UHGV virus genome: UHGV-0153572
Source: a virus
Direction: 5' to 3' (one strand)
DNA length: 12,283 nucleotides
A program made the translations under genes and the position numbers. A model generated the notes under the pieces. It did no database searches, was not told the DNA's origin, and saw only the letters and a program-made list of their open reading frames with translations. This document shows, piece by piece, positions 1-12,283 of the stretch (position 1 is the first letter of the stretch; each line of letters starts with the position of its first letter).

Positions 1-272
1 AGTAAGGCCAAACGCCTTAAAACGGTTGCAGGGGCATAGATTTTCAACCATTCATCTCTCAGCTTGGCGACATCGGCACTCCTGATGCTGGCCATATAGT
101 TTTTCGCCAGCTGAGTGCCTTTTAGTATCCGCACCAATGATTGGTCTTGCACTGCCCCTTTTTTGTCGGGAACAATCTCTTTTTCATATCGCGTTAGGGC
201 TTCATACAATGTCGTAGATTCCGCTTCGCTGCGGCTAAGCCAAACTCCTCTCGCCATTTCTGACTCGATCAT
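1..272 (-). CDS. Partial CDS (N-terminal ~90 codons; continues past the window start): putative tyrosine recombinase/integrase, core-binding N-terminal region
   Basis: Minus-strand ORF with ATG at 272..270 (alternative in-frame ATG at 284..282), open to position 1. Translation MIESEMARGVWLSRSEAESTTLYEALTRYEKEIVPDKKGAVQDQSLVRILKGTQLAKNYMASIRSADVAKLRDEWLKIYAPATVLRRLAL. The RYEK ... NYM(A/S)-I ... TVxRRLALL spacing resembles the core-binding domain of lambda-Int-type recombinases. Not in the ORF track because it is cut by the window edge. Confidence 0.4.
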   Translation of the reverse strand, partial: MIESEMARGVWLSRSEAESTTLYEALTRYEKEIVPDKKGAVQDQSLVRILKGTQLAKNYMASIRSADVAKLRDEWLKIYAPATVLRRLAL

Positions 273-501
273 TTTTGGGAACATACAATGTAATTAAAAT
301 AGACCCAGCTTACCGCCCTGCACCTATTGAACACAAAGATGTTGAGAGGGAAAACCTCGTTTACGGATTTGAGCTTCCCATTGGTAGTTACCACGTTTGC
401 GTATAGTCGCCATTTCTGTCTGATTCCTAACGAACTGTGGCAATATTGTGGCAAAAAATCCATTTAAATTCGATAGGTATTGATTTTACAAGATCAATTT
501 A

Positions 502-550
502 CGCATTCGTAATGCGAAGGTCGTAGGTTCGACTCCTATTATCGGCACCA
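502..550 (+). tRNA. Orphan 3' fragment (49 nt) of a tRNA-Thr(CGU) gene (thrW-type): anticodon arm, variable loop, T-arm, 3' acceptor strand and CCA; putative prophage att core, not a complete tRNA
   Basis: Sequence CGCATTCGTAATGCGAAGGTCGTAGGTTCGACTCCTATTATCGGCACCA matches, from memory, the 3' two-thirds of enterobacterial tRNA-Thr(CGU), including the GGTTCGACTCC T-arm and terminal CCA. The 27 nt upstream (475-501) do not match the 5' acceptor/D-arm, so no cloverleaf can form. Confidence 0.8.
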
Positions 551-564
551 TTTAAATCAATAAG

Positions 565-1728
565 TTACACATCATTAGTACCTTCCTTATTTTTTGACTG
601 GGACAAATTTGGGACCGATGGGTTCAGGATCGAGTCTATTTGCCGTGCGTGTTCGGTAAGGTGATTAGGTGCAAGGTGAGCATATCGACGAACCATTTCG
701 ATAGACTCCCACCCTCCCATTTCCTGTAACACTGACAACGGGACTCCGGCTTGAACCAGCCAACTTGCCCAGGTGTGTCTCAAGTCGTGAAATCTGAAAT
801 CATCAATACCAGCCCGTCTCAGCGCCGCTTTCCAGGCTGTGTTTGCGTCATACCGCATCTTCCTTACTGTTGGCGCTTTCGTTCCGTCTGGTTTGGTACA
901 GCTTTCCTTGTACACAAATACCCAACGGTGATGATTCCCGATTTGTTTTTTCAATACGCGACATGCAGTATCATTCAGCGCAACGCCAATTGCGCGGTTT
1001 GATTTACTCTCTTCCGGGTTTATCCATGCCACCCGGCGCTGCATATCTATTTGTTGCCATTCAAGGTTGATGATGTTCGAGCGTCTTAAACCTGTTGCCA
1101 GTGCAAATTCAACAACAGACTTTAATGGCTCCGGACATTCATCAATCAGCCTTTGTGCTTCATGGGGCTCCAGCCAGCGGATCCGTTTATTCTTTGGTTG
1201 AGGCACTTTAATAATTGGTGCCTTATCCAGCATTTTCCATTCACGCTCTGCGGCTCTTAGTAGGGCCTTTATAAATGAAAGATGCGTAGCCTTCGTTGCA
1301 ACGGACGCTGGTTTTGGCGTGTATTCTGGAACAGGTTTCCCTTTTTTTCTGCATGCTTCTGCCCTGAGTTTCCAGTTTTCCTCATGACGCCGGTTCGTCA
1401 TTTTCTGCATTGCTGAATAAATTTTTGATTCAGTAATGTCTCTTAGTTGCATTCCTGCGAAATGTTGAAGCCAGAATCCGATCCGGCTTTTGTCATCGTC
1501 CAGTGATTTTTTATGTGCTTTCTCTTCAAGCCACCTGACACACGCTTCCTCGAACGTTATATCAGGTATTTCACCAAGTTTGCTGACCCGCCATGCTTCA
1601 GCCTTTAGCTTGTCATGGAGTTCTGTCGCCTGCCTTTTGTCCTTTGTTCCAAGAGACTGTTTAAATCTTTTACCGTTCGGCAATGTGAAACTGGCGTACC
1701 ATATTTCACCTCTGCGGAAGAGTGACAT
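565..1728 (-). CDS. int: Site-specific tyrosine integrase, phage P22 Int-type (387 aa)
   Basis: 387-aa ORF with ATG at 1728..1726 preceded by an AGGAAAG/GAGG Shine-Dalgarno. C-terminal catalytic signature of tyrosine recombinases ([39 protein letters not shown], with R...HxxR...Y). Length and N-terminus ([24 protein letters not shown]) resemble P22 Int as remembered. Its 3' end lies 15 bp from the tRNA-Thr att core. Confidence 0.93.
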
Positions 1729-1955
1729 TTTCTTTCCTCTGTTATGCCATCACCCGCGCTCACCTGGACAGTATGCAGCGGAGACTGAAGAGCCGCAATG
1801 CAGGCTTGTCGTGTTGTGAGGTAAGGAGATTTATTCTTAGTGGGATCTTTGCGTGTTGCCTGAAGACGCCCTGTGCGTATCCAGTTAATGGCAGTCGGTC
1901 TGGATATCTTGAGAAAATGACAGGCCTCATCGAGTGTGAGGCTGTATGGCTCCAT
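1605..1955 (-). CDS. xis: Excisionase (Xis), helix-turn-helix excisionase family, 116 aa
   Basis: ATG at 1955..1953 with GAGGTG Shine-Dalgarno 6 nt upstream. N-terminus [33 protein letters not shown] fits the excisionase/AlpA-type HTH pattern. It overlaps the int start by ~120 nt, as in P22 xis-int. The ORF-track entry 1605..2039 is trimmed to the internal Met with an RBS. Confidence 0.75.
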
Positions 1956-2260
1956 TATTTCACCTCTTGCTGTGACATTGTTGAAAAATGGATACCAGCT
2001 CGTTGCTGCCAGACGATCCAACCGAGAGTCATATCCCATGCCATGTATTCGTTATCGCCGTTTTTTGCTCTCCGACGATCTACTAAGTCACCGAAACGCT
2101 TTTCCATGAATAATTCATAAGCTTCGCGTTCATCTGGTTCTACTTCCAGCGATAGGAGTGCGATTTCATAAGCACGGCGCTCAATATCGTCTCGCACGTC
2201 AAGGCTGCTGATACGCTCTTTAATTTCTTTAATCAGTTCTTTGTCGGTAAAAGTGATCAT
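1955..2260 (-). CDS. Hypothetical phage accessory protein (101 aa), acidic, no recognised domain
   Basis: ATG at 2260..2258. Its TAA stop (1957..1955) overlaps the xis ATG (TAATG), indicating translational coupling within the leftward operon. Sequence MITFTDKELIKEIKERISSLDVRDDIERRAYEIALL... Confidence 0.55.
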   Translation of the reverse strand: MITFTDKELIKEIKERISSLDVRDDIERRAYEIALLSLEVEPDEREAYELFMEKRFGDLVDRRRAKNGDNEYMAWDMTLGWIVWQQRAGIHFSTMSQQEVK

Positions 2261-2622
2261 TATGCTCCAGCCTCCGGTGCTTTTGGCATTATTGCCCAGT
2301 GAGTGATATTGACGTTTTCAAGGTCCCCGACCTGAAATGTCCACAGCCATTCTCCGGTTTCTTTTTGTCCCCAGGTGTACCAGAGAGAACGCCAGCCAAT
2401 TAGCCAGCCTTCTCCGTTAGCATCAAATAACAAAACACTTTCATTTGCTGGTGGCAGTTCAGCTGACACTGGTATTACTTTGTTTTCCTGTGCTGCACAT
2501 TTAGCTTCAAGCGCATCGAATTTACGCACCAGGTATTCAGCATCTGTTTCATTTACTTTCAGATCTCGCGGTACACATCTCCCACGAAGAAACCCTTCCA
2601 TTTCGAAAACATTCATGCGCAT
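2260..2622 (-). CDS. DUF551-like phage protein (118-120 aa)
   Basis: C-terminal Trp-rich block WLIGWRSLWYTWGQKETGEWLW...ITHWAIMPKAPE resembles the DUF551 signature (...THWMPLPEPP) common in lambdoid early-left regions. Candidate starts are ATG 2622 or ATG 2616; the latter overlaps the stop of the upstream HD gene (ATGA). Its stop overlaps the next gene's ATG (TAATG at 2258-2262). Confidence 0.6.
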   Translation of the reverse strand: MRMNVFEMEGFLRGRCVPRDLKVNETDAEYLVRKFDALEAKCAAQENKVIPVSAELPPANESVLLFDANGEGWLIGWRSLWYTWGQKETGEWLWTFQVGDLENVNITHWAIMPKAPEAGA

Positions 2623-3149
2623 TTGCGTAACTCCGATAACTCGTTAAAACGTTCCATAAACATCCCGTAGGCATGGCCCGGTGCCTGTGGAATCACTTTG
2701 AACATCTCTGTTGCCGGGATACCTTCCAGTACAGGCCAGAAAGAGCCATCATCAAGCCCGAGATCGCGGCGTTCGGTTGCCAGCATAATGAGATCGGCAT
2801 ATTTCACTGGCGTGCTCATAACAGGAGGTAACCCGTATTTCTCACGTATTACGGCGTCTATTTTTTCTTCCATCCGTTTATAGTCAGGAAGAAGTCGTTT
2901 CAGTGGTGCGGGGATGTCCTGGCAATATGCTTCTGTTGCATCATGCATTAAAGCTTCAAAAGCAAATTCCTGTGGCACCAGCTGGCTGCAAAGCACCGCA
3001 TGTTGGGCGACACTGTAGAAGTGTGAAAGATGTCCTGCAAAGCGACAGATATTTGAAAGGGAAACCGCGATATCGTTAATAACGATGTCGTCTTTATTTA
3101 TCCTGTCATAATAAAAATGCTTCCCGGAAAAAGTTTTAATAAATGACAT
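2613..3149 (-). CDS. HD-domain metal-dependent phosphohydrolase (178 aa from ATG 3149; the ORF extends to a GTG at 3176)
   Basis: H...HD motif context (VAQHAVLCSQ ... EALMHDATEAY) and later acidic residues typical of the HD phosphohydrolase superfamily. ATG 3149..3147 has a GGAGA Shine-Dalgarno 5 nt upstream; the longer ORF-track version starts at GTG 3176 without an obvious RBS. Confidence 0.7.
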   Translation of the reverse strand: MSFIKTFSGKHFYYDRINKDDIVINDIAVSLSNICRFAGHLSHFYSVAQHAVLCSQLVPQEFAFEALMHDATEAYCQDIPAPLKRLLPDYKRMEEKIDAVIREKYGLPPVMSTPVKYADLIMLATERRDLGLDDGSFWPVLEGIPATEMFKVIPQAPGHAYGMFMERFNELSELRKCA

Positions 3150-3273
3150 TTTGTTCTCCACGTATATGCGCTGCACCGCGCTGAATTCGGGTAAAAGGAA
3201 GCCCTCACCGTCCGGCGATTATTGAGTCAATTACATTTCCATAAATGCCCCCGTAGGGGCGGTTAGTTTCTCC

Positions 3274-3362
3274 ACAAAACAGAGAAGAACACCTGCGGTG
3301 GCAGCCGCCCGGATGGATTGGGTTATGAGCCCGTCGTCCGGTGATGCTCTTCTCTGTTTTGT
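3274..3362. repeat. 15-bp perfect inverted repeat (ACAAAACAGAGAAGA at 3274-3288; TCTTCTCTGTTTTGT at 3348-3362) with a 59-bp spacer, in the divergent intergenic region
   Basis: Direct reading: reverse complement of 3274-3288 equals 3348-3362 exactly. Lies between the leftward (int-proximal) and rightward operons. A GC-rich hairpin (GCCCC-CGTA-GGGGC, 3247-3260) lies just upstream. Confidence 0.6.
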
Positions 3363-3407
3363 AAAAAGGACGGTATCCGCCTGACGGCTAATCAGGCATA
3401 TCACCAG

Positions 3408-3611
3408 ATGGTGAAGCTGGGGATCGTCGAGCAGCGCGAACGATACAGCCGTACCGCGATTAACAACATCAAAAAATTCTGGTCGCTGACAGCGAAAGGC
3501 TGCATGTTCGGCAAGAACATCACCAGTCCTGCAAATCCGCGCGAGACGCAGCCGCATTTCTTCGAATCCCGATTCCCTGAGCTGTTAAAGCTGCTCGATA
3601 CCGTTCATTGA
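3408..3611 (+). CDS. Possible small hypothetical protein (67 aa); weak call
   Basis: ATG ORF ending 1 nt before the start of the next gene; amino-acid composition is more protein-like than the overlapping minus-strand 108-aa ORF. No strong RBS identified; could equally be non-coding regulatory sequence. Confidence 0.25.
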   Translation: MVKLGIVEQRERYSRTAINNIKKFWSLTAKGCMFGKNITSPANPRETQPHFFESRFPELLKLLDTVH

Positions 3612-3612
3612 G

Positions 3613-4608
3613 GTGACCGTGAGAGCACTACTGACCCCTGAAATAGCCCCGCGTATGGGGATCGTATTGTTCAGACCCGGTTCAGAGCTGATGCCCCTGT
3701 TTATGCAGGGGCGTGTCCTGCTGGAGCCTGAGCCGGAACGTTATTCATCTTTCGCCAGTGGTGCCGTTCCCGCGGCATCACAACCGCTGGCGGATGATCC
3801 TGCCGTTCGAGCCGTGTTCTGCAATGAGGCAGTGATCCGTCGTGCTGGTGGCGTGGAATGTCTTGAAAGCTGGTTACTTCGTGAAAAGGGCTGTCAGTGG
3901 CCTCATTCCGACTGGCACAGCGAGAACATGACCACAATGCGACACGCGCCGGGCGCGATCCGTCTGTGCTGGCACTGCGATAACCAGCTGCGCGATCAGT
4001 TCACGGAACGGCTGGAATCAATGGCAACGGATAACTGTGCCCGCTGGGTGTTGTCTGTTGTGCGTCGGGATCTCGGTTTTGATGACAGTCACGTTGTGAC
4101 AATGCCGGAACTGTGCTGGTGGCTGATTCGTAATGACCTGGCGGATGCCTTACCGGAAAGTGCAGCCCGTAAGGCACTGAGATTACCGAAGCCTGTTGTG
4201 CCGTCTGTCACCCGGGAAAGTGACCTTGTGCCTTCGGTTCCTGCCACCAGCATCATCCAGGATAAGGCGAAAAAGGTGCTGGCGCTGAAAGTGGATCCGG
4301 AGTCGCCGGAGTCTTTTATGTTACGCCCAAAACGTCGCCGCTGGGTTAATGAAAAGTACACGCGCTGGGTTAAGACACAGCCGTGTGCATGTTGTGGAAA
4401 GCCTGCTGATGATCCCCACCACCTGATAGGCCACGGTCAGGGTGGGATGGGTACAAAAGCGCATGACCTCTTTGTGTTGCCTTTGTGCAGAAAGCATCAC
4501 GACGAGCTGCATGCGGATACCGTGGCATTTGAAGAGAAGTATGGCTCCCAGCTGGAGCTGATATTTCGTTTTATCGATCGTGCGCTGGCAATAGGCGTAC
4601 TGGCGTAA
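3613..4608 (+). CDS. DUF968-like phage protein with C-terminal HNH/zinc-binding nuclease-like motif (~330 aa)
   Basis: C-terminal CACCGKPADDPHHLIGHGQGGMGTKAHDLFVLPLCRKHHDELH has Cys pairs and HH...H spacing like HNH-type modules. Overall architecture resembles the DUF968 (YdfU-type) proteins of lambdoid nin regions as remembered. Start is GTG 3613, or GTG 3619 with a GAGGTG Shine-Dalgarno. Confidence 0.7.
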   Translation: MTVRALLTPEIAPRMGIVLFRPGSELMPLFMQGRVLLEPEPERYSSFASGAVPAASQPLADDPAVRAVFCNEAVIRRAGGVECLESWLLREKGCQWPHSDWHSENMTTMRHAPGAIRLCWHCDNQLRDQFTERLESMATDNCARWVLSVVRRDLGFDDSHVVTMPELCWWLIRNDLADALPESAARKALRLPKPVVPSVTRESDLVPSVPATSIIQDKAKKVLALKVDPESPESFMLRPKRRRWVNEKYTRWVKTQPCACCGKPADDPHHLIGHGQGGMGTKAHDLFVLPLCRKHHDELHADTVAFEEKYGSQLELIFRFIDRALAIGVLA

Positions 4609-4621
4609 GTGGAGAACGAGC

Positions 4622-5350
4622 ATGAACCTTGAAGCTTTACCAAAATATTACTCCCCAAAATCTCCAAAATTGAGTGATGACGCACCGGCGACAGGCTCGG
4701 GTGGTTTAACAATTACAGATGTGATGGCTGCGCAGGGGATGGTGCAGTCGAAAGCACCGCTTGGGTTTGCCTTATTCCTGGCAAAAGTTGGTGTTCAGGA
4801 TCCTCAGTTTGCGATTGAAGGTCTGCTCAATTACGCGATGGCACTGGATAACCCGACATTGAACAAATTGAGTGAAGAAATCCGGTTACAGATCATCCCT
4901 TACCTTGTGAATTTTGCCTTTGCTGATTATTCCAGGTCTGCGGCAAGTAAGGCTCGCTGTGAGCATTGTGCTGGTACTGGATTTCATAATGTATTGCGCG
5001 AGGTGGTGAAACACTCCAGAAGCGGGGAATCTGTTATCAAGGAAGAGTGGGTGAAGGAACTATGTCAGCATTGTCATGGTAAGGGAGAAGTCAGCACAGC
5101 GTGCAGAGGGTGTAAGGGTAAAGGTATTGTCCTGGATGAAAAAAGGACCCGGCTTCATGGCACGCCTGTTTATAAGATTTGTGGGCGTTGCAATGGAAAC
5201 CGATTTAGCCGTTTACCAACCACACTGGCGCGGAATCATGTCCAGAAGCTGGTACCAGACCTGCCGAAGATCTGGGAAAAGTCACTTTCCGCCCGTCCAT
5301 CACGGCTTATGTGGTGGGAGATGACTGCTTTGACCAGCGCGATCGCCTGA
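4622..5350 (+). CDS. Phage antitermination protein Q-like protein with DnaJ-type zinc-finger repeats (242 aa); C-terminus possibly chimeric
   Basis: ATG 4622 with GGAGA Shine-Dalgarno. Four CxxCxGxG-type motifs (CEHCAGTG, CQHCHGKG, CRGCKGKG, CGRCNGNR; nt ~4958-5191). Resembles, from memory, the Q-type antiterminators of E. coli lambdoid prophages that sit next to a DUF968 gene. The last ~30 codons overlap, in another frame, DNA homologous to the DNA-circulation gene. Confidence 0.65.
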   Translation: MNLEALPKYYSPKSPKLSDDAPATGSGGLTITDVMAAQGMVQSKAPLGFALFLAKVGVQDPQFAIEGLLNYAMALDNPTLNKLSEEIRLQIIPYLVNFAFADYSRSAASKARCEHCAGTGFHNVLREVVKHSRSGESVIKEEWVKELCQHCHGKGEVSTACRGCKGKGIVLDEKRTRLHGTPVYKICGRCNGNRFSRLPTTLARNHVQKLVPDLPKIWEKSLSARPSRLMWWEMTALTSAIA

Positions 5351-6465
5351 TTGACGCGCTGAATAAACCCGGTCCCGGCACGCTTGTCCACCCGACATAC
5401 GGTGAGTTGAAAGTCTGTGTTGACGGGGAAGTTCGGGTCAGCACATCGAAGAGTGAAGGGCGTATTGTCCGCTTTGACCTGAAGTTTGTCGAAGCGGGAG
5501 ATCTCTCTTACCCCACATCAGGCGTGGCGACGGCGCAGACGCTGATGTCATCCTGTTCTGCACTGGATGACTGCATCAGTGACAGCTTCAGCGGTTTCAG
5601 TATCGATGGCGTGGCAGATTTTGTGCAGAACGACGTCGTCGGTAATGTCGGCACAATGCTTGGGTATGTTTCTGATGCGATGAAAGTGGTGGATTCTGCC
5701 GTATCGGATGCCGCCAGGCTGTTGCAGGGGGATATCTCGGTACTTCTTCCGCCGCCATCGTCAGGCAAAAATTTCGTTGAGCAGGTGCAGAAAATGTGGC
5801 GTACCGGGAAACGCCTTTATGGTAACGCCAGCGACCTGGTCACCATGATCAAAACGCTTTCCGGTGTCAGCCTTGGCAGCGATCTGCAACCGCGCGGCGT
5901 CTGGAAAACGGACAGTAAAACCACCGCCACGGCGACGCAGCAGCGTAACGTGGTTGCCAGCACCCTTCGTACGACCGCAATCAGCGAAGCGGCGTATGTC
6001 GTCACACGATTGCCTGCGCCCACAACTTCCGCGGTGATGCAGAATGCCACAGTGGGGCAGTCAACAACACCCGCGCAGAGCACCGGCTGGCCTTCTGTCA
6101 CGCATCCGGCACTGAACAATGCACCGGCGGTGAAAAACACGGTTGACCTGCCAACGTGGGAAGAACTGACCGACATTCGCGACACACTGAATACGGCAAT
6201 TGATAAGGAGTTGTCCCGTACAACCAGTGATGCGCTGTTTCTGGTGCTGCGCCGGGTGAAAGCAGATCTGAATGCGGATATCAACACGCGCCTTGAACAG
6301 TCTGCACGGATCATTCAGCGCACGCCGGATGAGGTTTTACCCGCGCTGGTGCTGGCGGCGACCTGGTTTGATAACGCGGCGCGTGACGCGGACATTATCC
6401 GGCGTAATGCCATTACGCATCCCGGCTTTGTGCCGGTGATCCCTCTGAAGGTGCCAGTGCAATGA
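5311..6465 (+). CDS. Mu-type DNA circulation protein (gpN family), N-terminally truncated; possible pseudogene
   Basis: Contains the family block AYVVGDDCFDQRDRLIDALNKPGPGTLVHPTYGELKV. The frame is open upstream only to 5209 (in-frame TAG at 5206-5208) and similarity begins around AEDLGK (~5263). The first possible start is GTG 5311 with no RBS, so ~45-60 N-terminal residues of a typical homologue are absent. Confidence 0.75.
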   Translation: MVGDDCFDQRDRLIDALNKPGPGTLVHPTYGELKVCVDGEVRVSTSKSEGRIVRFDLKFVEAGDLSYPTSGVATAQTLMSSCSALDDCISDSFSGFSIDGVADFVQNDVVGNVGTMLGYVSDAMKVVDSAVSDAARLLQGDISVLLPPPSSGKNFVEQVQKMWRTGKRLYGNASDLVTMIKTLSGVSLGSDLQPRGVWKTDSKTTATATQQRNVVASTLRTTAISEAAYVVTRLPAPTTSAVMQNATVGQSTTPAQSTGWPSVTHPALNNAPAVKNTVDLPTWEELTDIRDTLNTAIDKELSRTTSDALFLVLRRVKADLNADINTRLEQSARIIQRTPDEVLPALVLAATWFDNAARDADIIRRNAITHPGFVPVIPLKVPVQ

Positions 6466-7541
6466 ACGACAATGTCACGCTACGGGTAAATGGCCGGGAG
6501 TGGAATGGCTGGACATCGGTGCGCATCGGTGCCGGTATTGAACGGCTGGCGCGGGATTTCAGTGTGGAGATCACCCGCCAGTGGCCGGGAGATGAGGGTA
6601 TCACCACGCTTCAGCCGCGCATTAAAAACGGTTCAAAAGTGGAAGTGCTGATTGGTGATGAGCTGGTGATCACCGGCTGGGTGGAGGCGACGCCCGTTCG
6701 TTACGATGCCCGTTCGGTCAGCACCGGTATTGCCGGACGTAGTCTGACGGCTGACCTGATTGACTGTGCAGCCGAACCGACACAGTTTAACGGACGCTCG
6801 CTGGTGCAGATTGCGCAGGCGCTTGCTGCGCCTTTCGGCATTGAGGTGGTGAACAGCGGTGCGCCGTCGGGTGTTATTCCTGATGTTCAGCCTGATCACG
6901 GTGAAACGGTGATTGAGGTAATAAACAAAATACTCGGTCAGCAGCAGGCGCTGGCTTACGACGACCCGCACGGCAGGCTGGTGATTGGCGGTATTGGCTC
7001 AACGCGGGCACATACCGCGCTGGTACTTGGGGAAAACATCCTTTCCTGCGATACGGAGAAGAGTATCCGGGAGCGGTTTTCTGTTTACCAGGTGGCGGGG
7101 CAGCGTGCCGGAAACGACGATGATTTCGGTGAGGTCACCACCACCGCGCTGCGGGCCCGCACAGAGGACGCATTTATTGCCCGTTACCGTCCGATGTATA
7201 TCAGGCAGACAGGGCAGGCCACGGGGGCAGGCTGTATTGCGCGTGCTGACTTTGAAGCCCGACAACGGGCGGCGCGGACGGATGAAACCACCTATGTGGT
7301 GCAGGGCTGGCGACAGGGTAACGGTACGCTGTGGCAGCCCAACCAGCGGGTGATTGTCTTTGATCCGGTCTGTGGTTTCGACAATACCGAACTGCTTGTC
7401 TCGGAAGTCACGTTTACTCAGGACCAGAACGGCACCCTGACGGAAATCCGTGTCGGCCCGCCTGATGCTTATCTGCCTGAACCCGAAGCCCCCGGCGCGC
7501 GGAAAAAGAAAAAAGCCAGAGTACAGGAGGACCCGTTCTGA
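6462..7541 (+). CDS. Mu gpP-type tail/baseplate protein (phage late control D / baseplate hub family), 359 aa
   Basis: ATG 6462 overlaps the upstream stop (ATGA). Size, position directly after the DNA-circulation gene and sequence character fit the Mu P / P2 gpD family. Part of a tightly overlapping operon. Confidence 0.8.
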   Translation: MNDNVTLRVNGREWNGWTSVRIGAGIERLARDFSVEITRQWPGDEGITTLQPRIKNGSKVEVLIGDELVITGWVEATPVRYDARSVSTGIAGRSLTADLIDCAAEPTQFNGRSLVQIAQALAAPFGIEVVNSGAPSGVIPDVQPDHGETVIEVINKILGQQQALAYDDPHGRLVIGGIGSTRAHTALVLGENILSCDTEKSIRERFSVYQVAGQRAGNDDDFGEVTTTALRARTEDAFIARYRPMYIRQTGQATGAGCIARADFEARQRAARTDETTYVVQGWRQGNGTLWQPNQRVIVFDPVCGFDNTELLVSEVTFTQDQNGTLTEIRVGPPDAYLPEPEAPGARKKKKARVQEDPF

Positions 7542-8089
7542 TGAGGACGATTGAAGCCATGCAGCGACAACTTCTCGGCCTGATTGCGCGGGCAGTGGTG
7601 AAAAGCATCAGTGCCGCCACGAAATGTCAGACCGTGGATGTGTCCCTGATTGCCGGTGAACCCAAAGCCGGGGTTGAACATCTTGAACCCTACGGTTTTA
7701 CCGCAAGGGCAAACAGCGGCGCGGAAGCGGTGGTGTTGTTTCCGGATGGCGACCGTTCTCATGCGGTGGTTGTTACGGTGTCGGACCGGCGCTACCGCCT
7801 GAAAGGGTTGCAGACGGGTGAGGTGGCTGTCTATGACGATCAGGGGCAGTCTGTGACGCTGACCCGGGAGGGGATCGTGGTGGACGGTGCAGGTAAAACG
7901 ATCACGTTTCGCAATTCACCTAAAGCACGTTTTGAAATGGACCTGGAAGTGACAGGACAGGTGAAAGACCTGTGCGACTCCAGCGGCACTACCATGTCAG
8001 CGATGCGGCTTGCCTATAACGGGCATCGTCACAGAGAGAACGGTCAGGGCAGTAACACCGACAAACCGGATAAAGCGATGGAGGCATGA
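7541..8089 (+). CDS. Baseplate assembly protein V-type (Mu gp45-like spike protein), 182 aa
   Basis: ATG 7541 overlaps the upstream TGA (TGATG), with an AGGAGG Shine-Dalgarno. N-terminal region MRTIEAMQRQLLGLIARAVVKSI...GEPKAGVEHLEPYGFTARA is typical of the phage baseplate V family. Confidence 0.8.
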   Translation: MRTIEAMQRQLLGLIARAVVKSISAATKCQTVDVSLIAGEPKAGVEHLEPYGFTARANSGAEAVVLFPDGDRSHAVVVTVSDRRYRLKGLQTGEVAVYDDQGQSVTLTREGIVVDGAGKTITFRNSPKARFEMDLEVTGQVKDLCDSSGTTMSAMRLAYNGHRHRENGQGSNTDKPDKAMEA

Positions 8090-8514
8090 TGGAACTGTGG
8101 CTGACGGTGAACGGTAAACGCACCTGCGCCAGCGCACCGCTGGATCCGCTGACCCGCGCCGTGGTGATTTCCCTGTTTACCTGGCGGCGGGCGGAGCCTG
8201 ATGACAACGCCGACGTCCCGATGGGATGGTGGGGGGATACCTGGCCTGCGGTACAGAATGACCGTTACGGCTCCCGACTGTGGCTGCTTCAGCGCAGCAA
8301 ACTGACCAATCAGCTGGTGCAGACAGTAAGGGGGTATATCCGCGAATGCCTGCAATGGATGATTGATGACGGCGTGGTGTCCCGTATTGATCTGGATATC
8401 CGCCGCACCGGGATTAATGAGCTGGGTAACAGTATCACCCTCTGGCGTCGTGACGGACCGGTAATGATTTCTTTTGATGATCTGTGGAGTGCGATAACGC
8501 ATGGCGGACAGTGA
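8086..8514 (+). CDS. Phage GP46-family baseplate protein (Mu gp46 / gpW-like), 142 aa
   Basis: ATG 8086 overlaps the upstream stop, with a GGAGG Shine-Dalgarno. Small protein in the conserved position between the V-type and J-type baseplate genes. Confidence 0.8.
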   Translation: MMELWLTVNGKRTCASAPLDPLTRAVVISLFTWRRAEPDDNADVPMGWWGDTWPAVQNDRYGSRLWLLQRSKLTNQLVQTVRGYIRECLQWMIDDGVVSRIDLDIRRTGINELGNSITLWRRDGPVMISFDDLWSAITHGGQ

Positions 8515-9559
8515 ATTTCAGCGCCCGACGCTGGCAGAAAATATCAGTATGCTCCGTAACGATTTATTCGCCAGGCTGGACGTCAGCGACACGCTCCGGC
8601 GCATGGATGAAGACGTGCGGGCAAAGGTGTATGCGGCGGCGCTGCATACGGTTTACGGGTACATCGATTATCTGGCAATGAACATGCTGCCTGACCTGTG
8701 CGATGAGTCCTGGCTGGCGCGACATGCTGCGATGAAACGGTGTCCGCGCAAGGGGGCCACGGCTGCCAGCGGGTATATGCGTTGGGAAGGTGTCAGCGAT
8801 GGCCTGAAGGTGACCGCCGGGAGTGTTATTCAGCGCGATGACCTGGTTCAGTACACGGCAACTGCCGATGCAACCAGCTCCGGTGGTGTCCTGCGCGTGC
8901 CGATCGCCTGCTCAAGTGCAGGCGCGGTCGGTAACGCTGACGACGGTACGTCATTAATCCTGGTCACGCCGGTTAATGGTCTGCCGTCTTCCGGCGTGGC
9001 AGATACCCTTACAGGCGGATTTGATACTGAAGAGCTGGAAACGTGGCGCGCCCGCGTCATTGAGCGGTATTACTGGACGCCTCAGGGCGGGGCTGACGGG
9101 GACTATGTCGTCTGGGCTAAAGAAGTGCCCGGCATTACCCGCGCATGGACATACCGTCACTGGATGGGAACGGGAACTGTCGGTGTGATGATTGCCAGCA
9201 GTGACCTGATTAATCCCATTCCGGAAGAATCAACGGAAACGGCAGCAAGACAACATATCGGGCCACTGGCCCCGGTGGCAGGCTCTGATTTGTATGTATT
9301 CAGGCCGGTGGCACATACGGTGGATTTTCATATCCGCGTGACGCCGGACACACCGGAAATACGGGCTGCCATTACCGCGGAGTTGCGTTCGTTCCTGCTG
9401 CGTGATGGTTATCCGCAGGGAGAACTGAAGGTATCGCGTATCAGTGAGGCGATTTCCGGTGCGAACGGGGAATACAGCCATCAGTTGCTTGCACCGGTGG
9501 ACAATATCTCCATTGCGAAAAACGAACTGGCGGTACTGGGGACGATTTCATGGACGTGA
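8501..9559 (+). CDS. Baseplate J-like protein (Mu gp47 family), 352 aa
   Basis: ATG 8501, overlapping the upstream gene by 14 nt. Size and synteny (after gp46-like, before the DUF2313 gene) fit the Baseplate_J family. Confidence 0.8.
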
Positions 9560-10134
9560 CAAACGATGATTACATCCGCCTGTTATCGGCACTGTTGCCG
9601 CCCGGTCCGGCGTGGTCAGCCAGCGATCCGGCGATTGCCGGTGCGGCACCGTCATTAACCCGTGTTCATCAGCGTGCGGATGCCCTGATGCGGGAGCTGG
9701 ATCCGCGCACCACCACTGAACTGATAAACCGCTGGGAGCGTCTGTGCGGTCTGCCGGATGAATGTATTCCGGCGGGAACGCAGACCCTTCGCCAGCGTCA
9801 GCAACGGCTGGATGCGAAGGTTAACCTGGCGGGCGGCATCAACGAGGATTTTTATCTTGCACAGCTTGCTGCCCTGGGCAGACCAGATGCCACCATCACG
9901 CGATACGACAAAAGCACGTTCACCTGCTCATCGGCCTGTACTGACGCGGTGAATGCGCCGGAATGGCGGTATTACTGGCAGGTCAACATGCCAGCCGCCA
10001 CCAACACCACCTGGATGACATGTGGCGATCCCTGTGATTCCGCACTGCGTATCTGGGGTGACACCGTTGTCGAGTGTGTGCTTAACAAACTCTGCCCGTC
10101 GCATACCTACGTAATTTTTAAATATCCGGAGTAA
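9550..10134 (+). CDS. DUF2313 tail protein (Mu gp48 / P2 gpI-like; YmfQ-type), 194 aa
   Basis: ATG 9550, overlapping the upstream gene by 10 nt. N-terminus [22 protein letters not shown]... and the Cys-rich C-terminus resemble, from memory, the YmfQ/DUF2313 proteins encoded immediately upstream of tail-fibre genes. Confidence 0.8.
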
Positions 10135-10137
10135 TCC

Positions 10138-10902
10138 ATGCATCGTATAGACACGAAAACCGCGCAGAAGGATAAGTTCGGCGCGGGTAAGAACGGTTTT
10201 ACCCGTGGTAACCCCCAGACCGGCACGCCTGCCACCGATCTGGATGATGACTACTTTGACATGTTGCAGGAAGAGCTTTGTGGCGTGGTGGAGGCATCCG
10301 GTGCCAGCCTGGAGAAGGGGCGGCATGACCAGCTGCTTACCGCGCTTCGTGCGCTGCTGTTAAGCCGCAAGAATCCGTTTGGCGATATCAAATCGGATGG
10401 CACCGTGAAAACGGCTCTCGAAAACCTTGGTTTGGGAGAAGGTGCTCCAGCTATTGGCGTTCCGTTCTTCTGGCCGTCCGCTGCAATGCCAAATACTGTA
10501 ATCGACAGCTGGTCCGGTATGGTGTTTTTGAAGTTCAACGGCGCGAAATTCTCTGCCACTGATTACCCTGTGCTGGCGAAAGTGTTTCCTTCGCTGGTAT
10601 TACCTGAAGCCCGCGGTGATTTCATTCGTATCTGGGATAATGGTCGTGGTGTAGATAGTGGACGTGGATTACTTAGTACGCAGTCTGACCTGATGAAACA
10701 ATTTACTTTGCAATACTACGGTCCTTCTGCTGGTACTGGAACAAGAACGGTTTTCGCCCTCCAGAGTAATGCGAACGGCATATATACGAGTGGTATTAGT
10801 CAGAATGATGGTAGTGGCACCGCTGCGGCTTTTAATGTACCAGGCGGCACCGAAACACGCCCACGTAACATTGCATTCAACTTTTTAGTAAGGGCTAAAT
10901 AA
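10138..10902 (+). CDS. Tail fibre protein (S-type): conserved N-terminal baseplate-attachment region plus variable C-terminal receptor-binding region, 254 aa
   Basis: ATG 10138 with GGAG Shine-Dalgarno. N-terminus [55 protein letters not shown] is the conserved tail-fibre constant region. Codons ~93-101 ([10 protein letters not shown]) are encoded by a Hin/Gin-type crossover-like site. The AT-richer downstream part is the variable region. Confidence 0.85.
10415..10440. other. Candidate Hin/Gin/Cin/Pin-family DNA-invertase crossover site inside the tail-fibre gene
   Basis: CTCTCGAAAACC-TT-GGTTTGGGAGAA: 26 bp with near-symmetric 12-bp arms around a central dinucleotide. It matches the remembered hixL (TTCTTGAAAACCAAGGTTTTTGATAA) at 19/26 positions and shares the AAACC/GGTTT core with gix. 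It sits at the constant/variable junction of the fibre gene, as gix does in Mu S. Confidence 0.55.
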
Positions 10903-11495
10903 TGAAACCTGTTTTTGATAAAAATGGGCTGGCTACAGTACCGGGTGATATGCGTTGTTTTTATTATGATGCAGTAACGTCTGAATATACTGGCTGGTCT
11001 GATGAATATATTAATACTGGTGTAAGTATGCCCGCCTGTTCCACTGGTATTGACCCGGGCGAATACATTCCGGGGAAAGTGGCAGTATTTACGGGTAAGG
11101 GATGGAGCCATGAAGAAGACCACCGCAATGAGACTGCTTACTCAATCGAAAATGGCGCAGCTGTTACAGTGGATTATATCGGTGCCATCAAAGACGGTTA
11201 TGTCACGCTTTCACCGTTAACGCCATACGATAAATGGGATGGTGAGAAATGGGTGACAGATACTGAGGCACAGCATAGTGCCTCAGTAGACGCGGCAGAA
11301 GCACAGCGCCAGTCGCTGATTGATGCTGCAATGGCTTCCATCAGTCTGATTCAACTGAAATTGCAGGCCGGGCGGAAGCTGACGCAGGCAGAAACAACCC
11401 GACTTAACGCCGTGCTGGATTACATTGACGCGGTGACGGCAACAGATACCAGCACCGCGCCGGATATCATCTGGCCTGAACAGCCGGAGGCGTAG
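10902..11495 (+). CDS. Tail fibre assembly chaperone (Tfa / Mu U-type), 197 aa
   Basis: ATG 10902 overlaps the tail-fibre stop (TAATG). N-terminus [36 protein letters not shown] and C-terminal DTSTAPDIIWPEQPEA are characteristic of the Tfa family. Confidence 0.9.
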   Translation: MKPVFDKNGLATVPGDMRCFYYDAVTSEYTGWSDEYINTGVSMPACSTGIDPGEYIPGKVAVFTGKGWSHEEDHRNETAYSIENGAAVTVDYIGAIKDGYVTLSPLTPYDKWDGEKWVTDTEAQHSASVDAAEAQRQSLIDAAMASISLIQLKLQAGRKLTQAETTRLNAVLDYIDAVTATDTSTAPDIIWPEQPEA

Positions 11496-11907
11496 GCCAT
11501 TCAATATCTGGAGCACTGGAAGTATCGACCAGTTCCAGTGCGTCAAGATAATCCAGCCATAAATTATATTGCGCCAGTTCCTCACCTTTCAGACGACCAA
11601 TAGCAGCCTTTCCTGGCCACTGCTTACTGTTAATATATTCATTAACTCGATTTATGAGTGCCTGTTTTTTTCGTTCCGCTTCTGACAGTTGTTCTTCATG
11701 AGTTAGCGGCGGTACGTCATCCCATGCAGGATAGCCATCATCACCCGCAACTCTCACTTTCCCTGGAGGTGGGGACAGGTACTTAATAAATATATCCTCA
11801 TCAACTTCAACTCCATTATGAGGCCATAACCCAGACTTCTTATACTGACTTTCCAGAGTAAATGGGTAAAACATATTAGTTTTAGCATCGTAAAGATATT
11901 TACTCAT
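11467..11907 (-). CDS. Second tail fibre assembly chaperone (Tfa'-type), inverted orientation, 146 aa
   Basis: ATG 11907..11905 with AGGAAG Shine-Dalgarno 7 nt upstream. C-terminus ...LVDTSSAPDIEWPTPPAVQAR carries the Tfa family motif. Its 3' end overlaps the plus-strand tfa 3' end convergently by 29 nt. The ORF-track version (to 12006) is trimmed to the Met with an RBS. Confidence 0.8.
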   Translation of the reverse strand: MSKYLYDAKTNMFYPFTLESQYKKSGLWPHNGVEVDEDIFIKYLSPPPGKVRVAGDDGYPAWDDVPPLTHEEQLSEAERKKQALINRVNEYINSKQWPGKAAIGRLKGEELAQYNLWLDYLDALELVDTSSAPDIEWPTPPAVQAR

Positions 11908-11908
11908 T

Positions 11909-12283
11909 TTATCTTCCTGTGGCAAACCAGCGGCAACCAGCGACAGTTGGAACATTGAAGGATGGATTTCCTTTATCAAGAGATCCCAGGTTATCTGCCA
12001 TGACACTTGAGTTAGTCAATTGATAGAATTGCCATACTGACATTTTCCCTGGCACAGGAGCATGGTCATGTTCATTAATAGAAATGACGCCTGTCGGAAA
12101 TGGGATAGGAAAATTAATCAAAACTTCATTTATTGTGGCCCCAGTTAGCCCCCATTGTTCAATATAACCATCCGGGCTTCGCCTCCATCCCGTCGTTGTA
12201 TCTCCCCAAAAGCCAAGAACTCGGACATTGGCAGCAGCACCAGCATGTGGATCAGTGCTACATCCATTTTGGTATCTCTTGCA
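11909..12283 (-). CDS. Partial CDS (C-terminal 124 codons; 5' end beyond the window): alternative tail-fibre C-terminal (receptor-binding) region
   Basis: Minus-strand frame is open from the window end to the TAA at 11911..11909, 1 nt before the tfa' start. Translation ...ANVRVLGFWGDTTTGWRRSPDGYIEQWGLTGATINEVLINFPIPFPTGVISINEHDHAPVPGK... contains the PDGxIxQWG-type motif of tail-fibre distal domains and a diverged copy of the LGxGxG junction. Confidence 0.7.
   Translation of the reverse strand, partial: CKRYQNGCSTDPHAGAAANVRVLGFWGDTTTGWRRSPDGYIEQWGLTGATINEVLINFPIPFPTGVISINEHDHAPVPGKMSVWQFYQLTNSSVMADNLGSLDKGNPSFNVPTVAGCRWFATGR

Follow-up and report, generated by a model that had tools for sequence, protein, structure and literature searches.

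A structurally studied relative of the protein analysed here is the lambda Q antiterminator (207 aa; PDB 4MO1 and 7UBJ-7UBN; Pfam PF03589). Its four-helix body comprises residues 61-113 and 153-207, and residues 114-152 form a zinc-ribbon arm. The Q-binding element is bound through a helix-turn-helix (HTH) motif made of helices H4 and H5; NusA is contacted by residues 182-197, and L202 and T206 touch the flap-tip helix and are required for antitermination (PMC9388147). Loading of Q proteins is confined to a promoter-proximal, sigma-dependent pause beside their binding element, and the contacts of lambda Q with RNA polymerase arise only after this DNA-directed loading (PMC9388147).

A second and closer relative is the Q protein of phage SfV (NP_599078, 250 aa), of the QuuQ/YdfT type (cluster P0001, with 3896 member sequences). 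The N-terminal segment, the body helices and one ribbon of lambda Q have homologous counterparts in the protein studied here, and the C-terminal HTH is homologous to that of lambda Q only in the full-length relatives. Whereas lambda Q has two cysteine knuckles and one zinc, in this subtype an additional unit of about 48 residues precedes the lambda-type ribbon. The lambda mechanism, with loading at the sigma-dependent pause and a nozzle in the RNA-exit channel (PMC9388147), presumably holds for this subtype as well. In the literature searched, nothing relevant on the four-knuckle Q, QuuQ or YdfT was found; the PDB search gave no four-knuckle Q structure, and neither a publication nor a solved structure on the extra ribbon came to light.

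The DNA analysed here (the window) is a stretch of 12,283 nucleotides from the virus genome UHGV-0153572. An ORF at positions 4622-5350 (plus strand) encodes a protein of 242 aa with four cysteine knuckles, and we consider it very probable that this ORF is an inactivated remnant of the SfV Q/QuuQ (YdfT) subtype of lambda-family late-gene antiterminators. Over residues 1-214 the product is 90-92% identical to SfV Q and the P0001 type, with which it shares the four knuckles and the upstream DUF968/HNH neighbour. In contrast to those proteins, the window copy stops 36 residues short of the family C-terminus and continues with 28 unrelated residues, and in contrast to SfV and intact prophages the window lacks the downstream late promoter, the terminator and the lysis cassette. 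The window shares its prophage backbone (P22-type integrase, yfdT/S/R, Mu-type baseplate) with them, and the host element is an SfV-like, Mu-tailed Escherichia coli prophage from which three internal deletions have taken about 23 kb.

A comparable defective SfV-like prophage is e14 of E. coli K-12, one of those that keep baseplate and tail-fibre genes and a Pin invertase. Like the remnant studied here, it has kept the integrase end and the baseplate/tail-fibre/invertase end and has lost the lysis and head genes. The breakpoints differ; the window junction lies inside Q and inside a circularization gene. RefSeq places the labels ymfQ-family and pinE on genes of this remnant.

Family assignment of the four-knuckle protein

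The ORF stays open for 242 codons and has a good ribosome-binding site. Its four knuckles are the following:

4958-4981, plus strand: knuckle 1, CEHCAGTG (C113-EHC-AGTG), residues 113-120; first half of the predicted extra zinc ribbon, absent from lambda Q
5063-5086, plus strand: knuckle 2, CQHCHGKG (C148-QHC-HGKG), residues 148-155; second half of the predicted extra zinc ribbon
5102-5125, plus strand: knuckle 3, CRGCKGKG (C161-RGC-KGKG), residues 161-168; equivalent to lambda Q C118/C121
5180-5203, plus strand: knuckle 4, CGRCNGNR (C187-GRC-NGNR), residues 187-194; equivalent to lambda Q C144/C147

The four CxxCxGxG-like motifs reported in the initial annotation are real, and the interval 4958-5191 given there runs from the first cysteine of knuckle 1 to the last cysteine of knuckle 4. 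Knuckles 1-3 match CxxCxGxG exactly and knuckle 4 reads CxxCxGxR. The motifs had also been called evenly spaced, which is wrong, as the distances between their first cysteines are 35, 13 and 26 residues. In an alignment of 25 homologues, C113, C116, G118, G120, G153, G155, C161, C164, G166, G168, C187, C190 and G192 were invariant, C148 and C151 were at least 90% conserved, and residues 1-60 were strongly conserved within the subfamily. The knuckles are not a chance feature.

The proposal that the protein is a Q-type antiterminator was confirmed by profile and structure searches. The Pfam Antiterm model (PF03589) gave 141.5 bits against a cut-off of 26.7 (E=9.7e-42), and the best match among solved structures was lambda Q 7UBM (E=9e-31). 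In the HMMER alignments, residues 1-120 matched lambda Q 1-125 at 78.7 bits, a homology covering the lambda residues that fold into the RNA-exit-channel torus, and residues 160-222 matched lambda Q 117-180, with knuckles 3 and 4 set against lambda 117-151. PHROG 127 ('anti-termination protein Q-like') was matched with E=1e-92, over profile positions 1-227 of 253 only. An AlphaFold model of a full-length homologue from P0001 (pLDDT 75) matched 7UBN_Q by fold (E=4e-12, TM 0.69, target-normalised). The protein is 89.7% identical to SfV Q and about 91% identical to the Q proteins of mEp460, Ayreon and Stx2c-converting phages. Near-identical intact genes are named ydfT or antitermination protein Q in RefSeq, and the DNA of the Q region matched 3789 of 5426 complete E. 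coli genomes. The gene also stands where a late antiterminator had been expected, following the DUF968/HNH gene as in SfV.

A rival reading would take the cysteine-rich region as the sign of a DnaJ-like chaperone or of a zinc-finger protein instead of an antiterminator. The CxxCxGxG knuckle is indeed common to this protein, the DnaJ cysteine-rich domain and anti-TRAP (RtpA), and weak matches to models of both were obtained: Pfam DnaJ_CXXCXGXG (PF00684) scored 31.1 bits on residues 148-193 (E=2.9e-07), the NCBIfam DnaJ model TIGR02349 scored 27.3 bits, and the anti-TRAP model NF058604 scored 23.5 bits, below its family cut-off. Knuckles 2 and 3, 13 residues apart, also aligned weakly to the anti-TRAP chain (query 140-179 to chain 4-45, E=0.09). 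Every DnaJ score, however, fell under its curated cut-off, just below it for Pfam (32.7) and far below it for NCBIfam (377.2). In precomputed Pfam annotations, PF00684 already appears on these Q proteins. The Pfam scan reported no J domain and no family beyond Antiterm and DnaJ_CXXCXGXG, DnaJA2 reached only E=0.39 in the fold search with the P0001 model, and no DnaJ cysteine-rich domain was found among the best 50 fold matches of a model of the arm only. The profile searches thus made no assignment to a DnaJ-like or other non-antiterminator family. The chaperone reading was rejected because the scores were below cut-off, the J domain was absent and the whole protein matched lambda Q in fold and sequence; we regard it as extremely improbable. 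By its sequence and modelled fold, the protein is to be classed as a lambda-family Q. The term 'DnaJ-type' in the initial annotation suits the knuckle motif only and not the domain, for which the models favour two tandem ribbons over the interleaved zinc sites (1+4 and 2+3) of the V-shaped DnaJ domain.

Truncation of the Q gene and the deletion map

BLAST comparison with SfV and the surrounding annotations gave the following features:

3249-3384, no strand: scar of two upstream deletions (BLAST against SfV)
3613-4608, plus strand: DUF968/HNH gene, counterpart of SfV orf45 (Pfam DUF968 E=3.5e-81; PHROG 96 E=1e-176)
4622-5263, plus strand: Q', codons 1-214 of a 250-codon gene of the SfV Q/QuuQ-YdfT type (Antiterm, 7UBM, BLAST)
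5263-5264, no strand: deletion junction, ...CCAGACCTG / CCGAAGATC..., about 15.4 kb gone in SfV coordinates (BLAST map)
5264-5350, plus strand: 28 foreign codons and a stop, where Q' runs out of frame into a DNA-circularization remnant
5266-6465, plus strand: 5'-truncated Mu N-like DNA-circularization gene without its first 47 codons (Pfam, RefSeq)

The initial annotation had taken the Q gene as intact. Full-length homologues have 250-252 aa. Up to residue 214 (...VPDL) the window protein hardly departs from them and differs from P0001 at two positions. After this residue it has PKIWEKSLSARPSRLMWWEMTALTSAIA where the homologues keep the conserved TDYQWYKGYADVIDKLVTKCWQEEAYAE.QLRKVTR. The 36 C-terminal residues lost in this way include the invariant W219, L230 and W235 and many positions conserved at 90% or more. 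Up to nucleotides 5263-5266 the DNA of Q' was 97.5% identical to SfV and 99.9% identical to an intact E. coli prophage (BLAST). Window positions 3363-5263 correspond to SfV 31557-33457, and positions 5264-10441 correspond to SfV 11797-16974. SfV orf15 spans 11655-12998 and the window homology begins at 11797. At the junction, Q codon 214 is followed, in another frame, by codon 48 of the Mu-type DNA-circularization gene, whose Pfam DNA_circ_N match covers only profile positions 55-88 of 88. No microhomology was seen when the sequences at the 5263/5264 junction were compared. Both fragments flanking the junction are pseudogenes in RefSeq (strain E4), Q' being described as 'antitermination protein, incomplete, missing C-terminus' and the circularization remnant as 'missing N-terminus'.

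The deletion of about 15.4 kb removed the last 36 Q codons, the late promoter/terminator region, a methyltransferase gene, the holin, endolysin, spanin, terminase, portal, protease, capsid and connector genes, the sheath, tube and tape-measure genes and the first 47 circularization codons. The claim that the late promoter and the lysis and head genes are missing is in agreement with this map; the same deletion cut Q itself. One illegitimate deletion joins codon 214 to circularization codon 48. Helix H5 is lost with it, and so are the late promoter with its pause element and terminator and the genes for lysis, terminase, head and tail (sheath, tube and tape measure). This is textbook prophage decay, in which one deletion takes the lysis and head genes and cripples their switch.

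Other ways of breaking this Q type were also observed. In large homologue clusters (P0013 with 243 members, P0018 and P0014) a frameshift directly follows ...LDEK, at a run of six A (positions 5137-5142, within GATGAAAAAAGGACC, Q codons 172-174), an indication that slippage at this site has inactivated this Q type time and again. Three further fusions (P0077, at locus L011 6001-7206; P0086; P0071) break after Q residue 145 (...EEWV); in this set Q1-145 is joined to a tail sheath protein, a tail-fibre assembly protein and one further partner. This shared breakpoint could represent a recurrent deletion hotspot inside Q, or a coincidence. The independent Q::sheath deletion has a 5-nt GGTGA microhomology, unlike the 5263/5264 junction.

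Upstream, the DUF968/HNH gene is intact and lies directly before Q, a pairing conserved with this Q type. Further upstream, window 505-3260 corresponds to SfV 20592-23347, 3249-3384 to SfV 24640-24775, and 3363 onward to SfV 31557 onward. Of the two deletions behind the scar at 3249-3384, one of about 1.3 kb took yfdQ/orf32, and the other, some 6.8 kb long, took cI and cro with the operators, the replication genes, dam and rusA, and most of KilA-N. At these joins the matching segments overlap by 12 and 22 nt, which suggests short-homology-mediated events. As these deletions took cI, cro and the operator region, the early promoter region that would normally drive Q is gone as well.

Seven intact baseplate/tail-fibre ORFs (6462-11495) lie downstream of Q' in the same orientation. 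The segment 10422-12207, with the tail-fibre C-terminus and the assembly gene, is inverted relative to an otherwise 99.9%-identical remnant in strain E4, with crossover sites near 10416-10441 and about 12200-12226. Contigs with the identical Q' fusion show both orientations, with a fibre ORF of 254 or 221 aa, and a Pin-type invertase gene lies just past the window in relatives. The crossover sites were missed by an inverted-repeat search, and manual comparison gave only an imperfect match near 12200-12226. These observations suggest an invertase that is still active, or was so once the deletions had occurred. At the other end, the integrase region (window 1-505; L003 3620-4939 compared with L006 1-3609) abuts a second integrase island in some genomes and fimbrial and response-regulator genes in others. 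Scans of the window with Rfam and for tRNA genes gave no matches.

Probable functional consequences and spread of the remnant

In the intact 250-aa protein, an N-terminal segment corresponding to the lambda nozzle part in the RNA-exit channel would be followed by two helices and two tandem zinc ribbons. Knuckles 1 and 2 would form the extra ribbon with a long beta-hairpin, and knuckles 3 and 4 the equivalent of the single lambda 'arm', which contacts DNA and sigma region 4. Past the ribbons, the H4-H5 HTH would bind the Q-binding element at the late promoter. H5 would serve both as the second HTH helix and as helix four in the bundle of the body, and would bear the equivalents of the lambda contacts with NusA and the flap-tip helix. 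The full-length P0001 model has helices at 200-210 and 216-248, which correspond to lambda H4 and H5 in the HMMER alignment. The window copy does not have this complete four-helix body with its H4-H5 HTH, as homology stops at residue 214 and helix 216-248 is absent. Since the truncation takes all of H5, correct folding of the body and DNA binding should, by analogy with lambda Q, both be lost in the remnant, which has probably lost its function.

The loading site is missing too. In intact relatives, the first 130 nt or so past the Q stop codon contain an intrinsic terminator, a promoter-like sequence (TTGCAT-17 nt-TAAGAT after SfV Q) and a -10-like element of the AACGAT or TAACGT type. The initial annotation had pointed to positions 5190-5320 as the place for a late promoter and a qut-like site; neither was found there or elsewhere in the searches made. 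A strict-consensus scan, which can miss weak promoters, detected no plus-strand sigma-70-like promoter in 3100-6600, the late promoter region of an intact relative had no match in the window with up to 3 mismatches, and the BLAST match to an intact E. coli prophage stopped at window position 5266, with no match for the late promoter region beyond it.

These results bear on the suggestion that Q' is a working antiterminator re-targeted to the downstream baseplate/tail-fibre operon. Such a role would fit the open frame, which lies immediately upstream of the seven intact ORFs and is co-oriented with them, and the preservation of the nozzle-forming N-terminal homology and of all four knuckles. 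However, the second HTH helix and the conserved last 36 residues are deleted, and Q' runs straight into the truncated circularization gene with no promoter-like sequence, pause element or terminator between them, whereas Q loading needs a promoter-proximal, sigma-dependent pause beside the binding element (PMC9388147). The early promoter region upstream is deleted as well. Because both the HTH helix and the loading site are missing, regulation of the baseplate operon by Q' is very unlikely, and we give re-targeting hardly any credence. The initial annotation had left the choice between such regulation and a relic, and it is the relic that agrees with the data.

The truncated product might instead be made and act as an anti-Q decoy. 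Having kept the RNA-polymerase-binding N-terminus and the zinc ribbons and lost DNA binding, it could damp the late genes of resident or incoming phages with the same Q. The exact Q'-circularization arrangement was found in only 2 of the 5426 complete genomes; the exact 242-aa product was present in 163 blocks of the wider assembly collection, from many independent assemblies, and looks like a fixed remnant of one lineage. This wide occurrence speaks for a decoy, a role that, if true, would explain why many E. coli samples carry this exact remnant. Carrier strains hold further Q-homologous places (5 in E4, 3 in TUM10008), and other truncated or fused Q forms are common, such as P0005 (317 members) and P0013. 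On the other hand, the body domain should be less stable once its four-helix bundle has lost a helix, the scan gave no sign of a promoter, and the lambda Q contacts with RNA polymerase need prior DNA-directed loading (PMC9388147). The many different broken forms, with frameshifts or fusions elsewhere, look like random decay and not like selection. We consider the decoy a slim prospect.

The preferred reading is still that of an inactivated remnant, probably not expressed. The wide spread of the open 242-codon ORF fits a vertically inherited neutral relic, and is also compatible with a retained role. The gene belongs, as a truncated copy, to a known family; the defective prophage around it is of a familiar type, and public annotation already has the gene as a pseudogene.

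The probable additional zinc ribbon of the SfV/QuuQ subtype

HMMER places the first of the two lambda Q knuckles on both knuckle 1 and knuckle 3 of the window protein: the sequence before it fits the residues preceding knuckle 1, and the sequence after it fits the residues following knuckle 3. Because of this double alignment, the SfV/QuuQ type has some 48 residues, one extra unit, more than lambda Q. An exhaustive search of 1.84 billion representative proteins returned 210 relatives at E<=0.001. Four knuckles are present in most of the full-length relatives sampled, knuckle 3 often being CxC and not CxxC, and two-knuckle, lambda-like forms are a minority among them. In the same sample the spacing between knuckles 1 and 2 varied from 14 to 63 residues, whereas the spacings between knuckles 2 and 3 (12-13) and 3 and 4 (26) were constant. 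A Salmonella form of 221 aa (P0017) lacks the hairpin and the knuckle 2 cysteines, leaving three knuckles, and in two forms of 269 aa (P0063 and P0097) knuckles 1 and 2 are separated by a longer stretch of unrelated sequence. The region of the hairpin is evidently a variable module.

A model of the arm only (pLDDT 83) contains two units. Unit A consists of a strand, knuckle 1, a long hairpin, knuckle 2 and a strand, the modelled beta-hairpin being formed by residues 121-147, and unit B consists of knuckle 3, a strand, a helix, a strand and knuckle 4. The best PDB matches of this model were the lambda Q ribbon (40 columns, rmsd 1.7-2.0 A, 48% identity), and the superposed part corresponds to the unit from knuckle 3 through the arm to knuckle 4. 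In a profile-profile comparison, hhalign aligned unit A to unit B with 94.9% probability, knuckle 1 falling opposite knuckle 3 and knuckle 2 opposite knuckle 4. On account of the superposition on the lambda ribbon, of the alignment of the two units and of the lack of DnaJ domains among the listed fold matches of the arm, we favour two tandem zinc ribbons (1+2 and 3+4) that would have arisen by duplication of one ribbon unit, the pairing of the zinc sites being deduced from secondary structure and from the scores of the superposition. Interleaved DnaJ-like sites (1+4 and 2+3) were supported neither by the search with the arm-only model nor by the profile alignment of units A and B.

The mildly new point of this analysis concerns the Q subfamily and not the window itself. 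As far as the full-length relatives sampled are concerned, the four-knuckle Q, which probably binds two zinc ions, is the common form and lambda Q the reduced one. The extra ribbon may have a part in the contacts with DNA or RNA polymerase in this common type of Q, which also occurs in Stx2c-converting phages.
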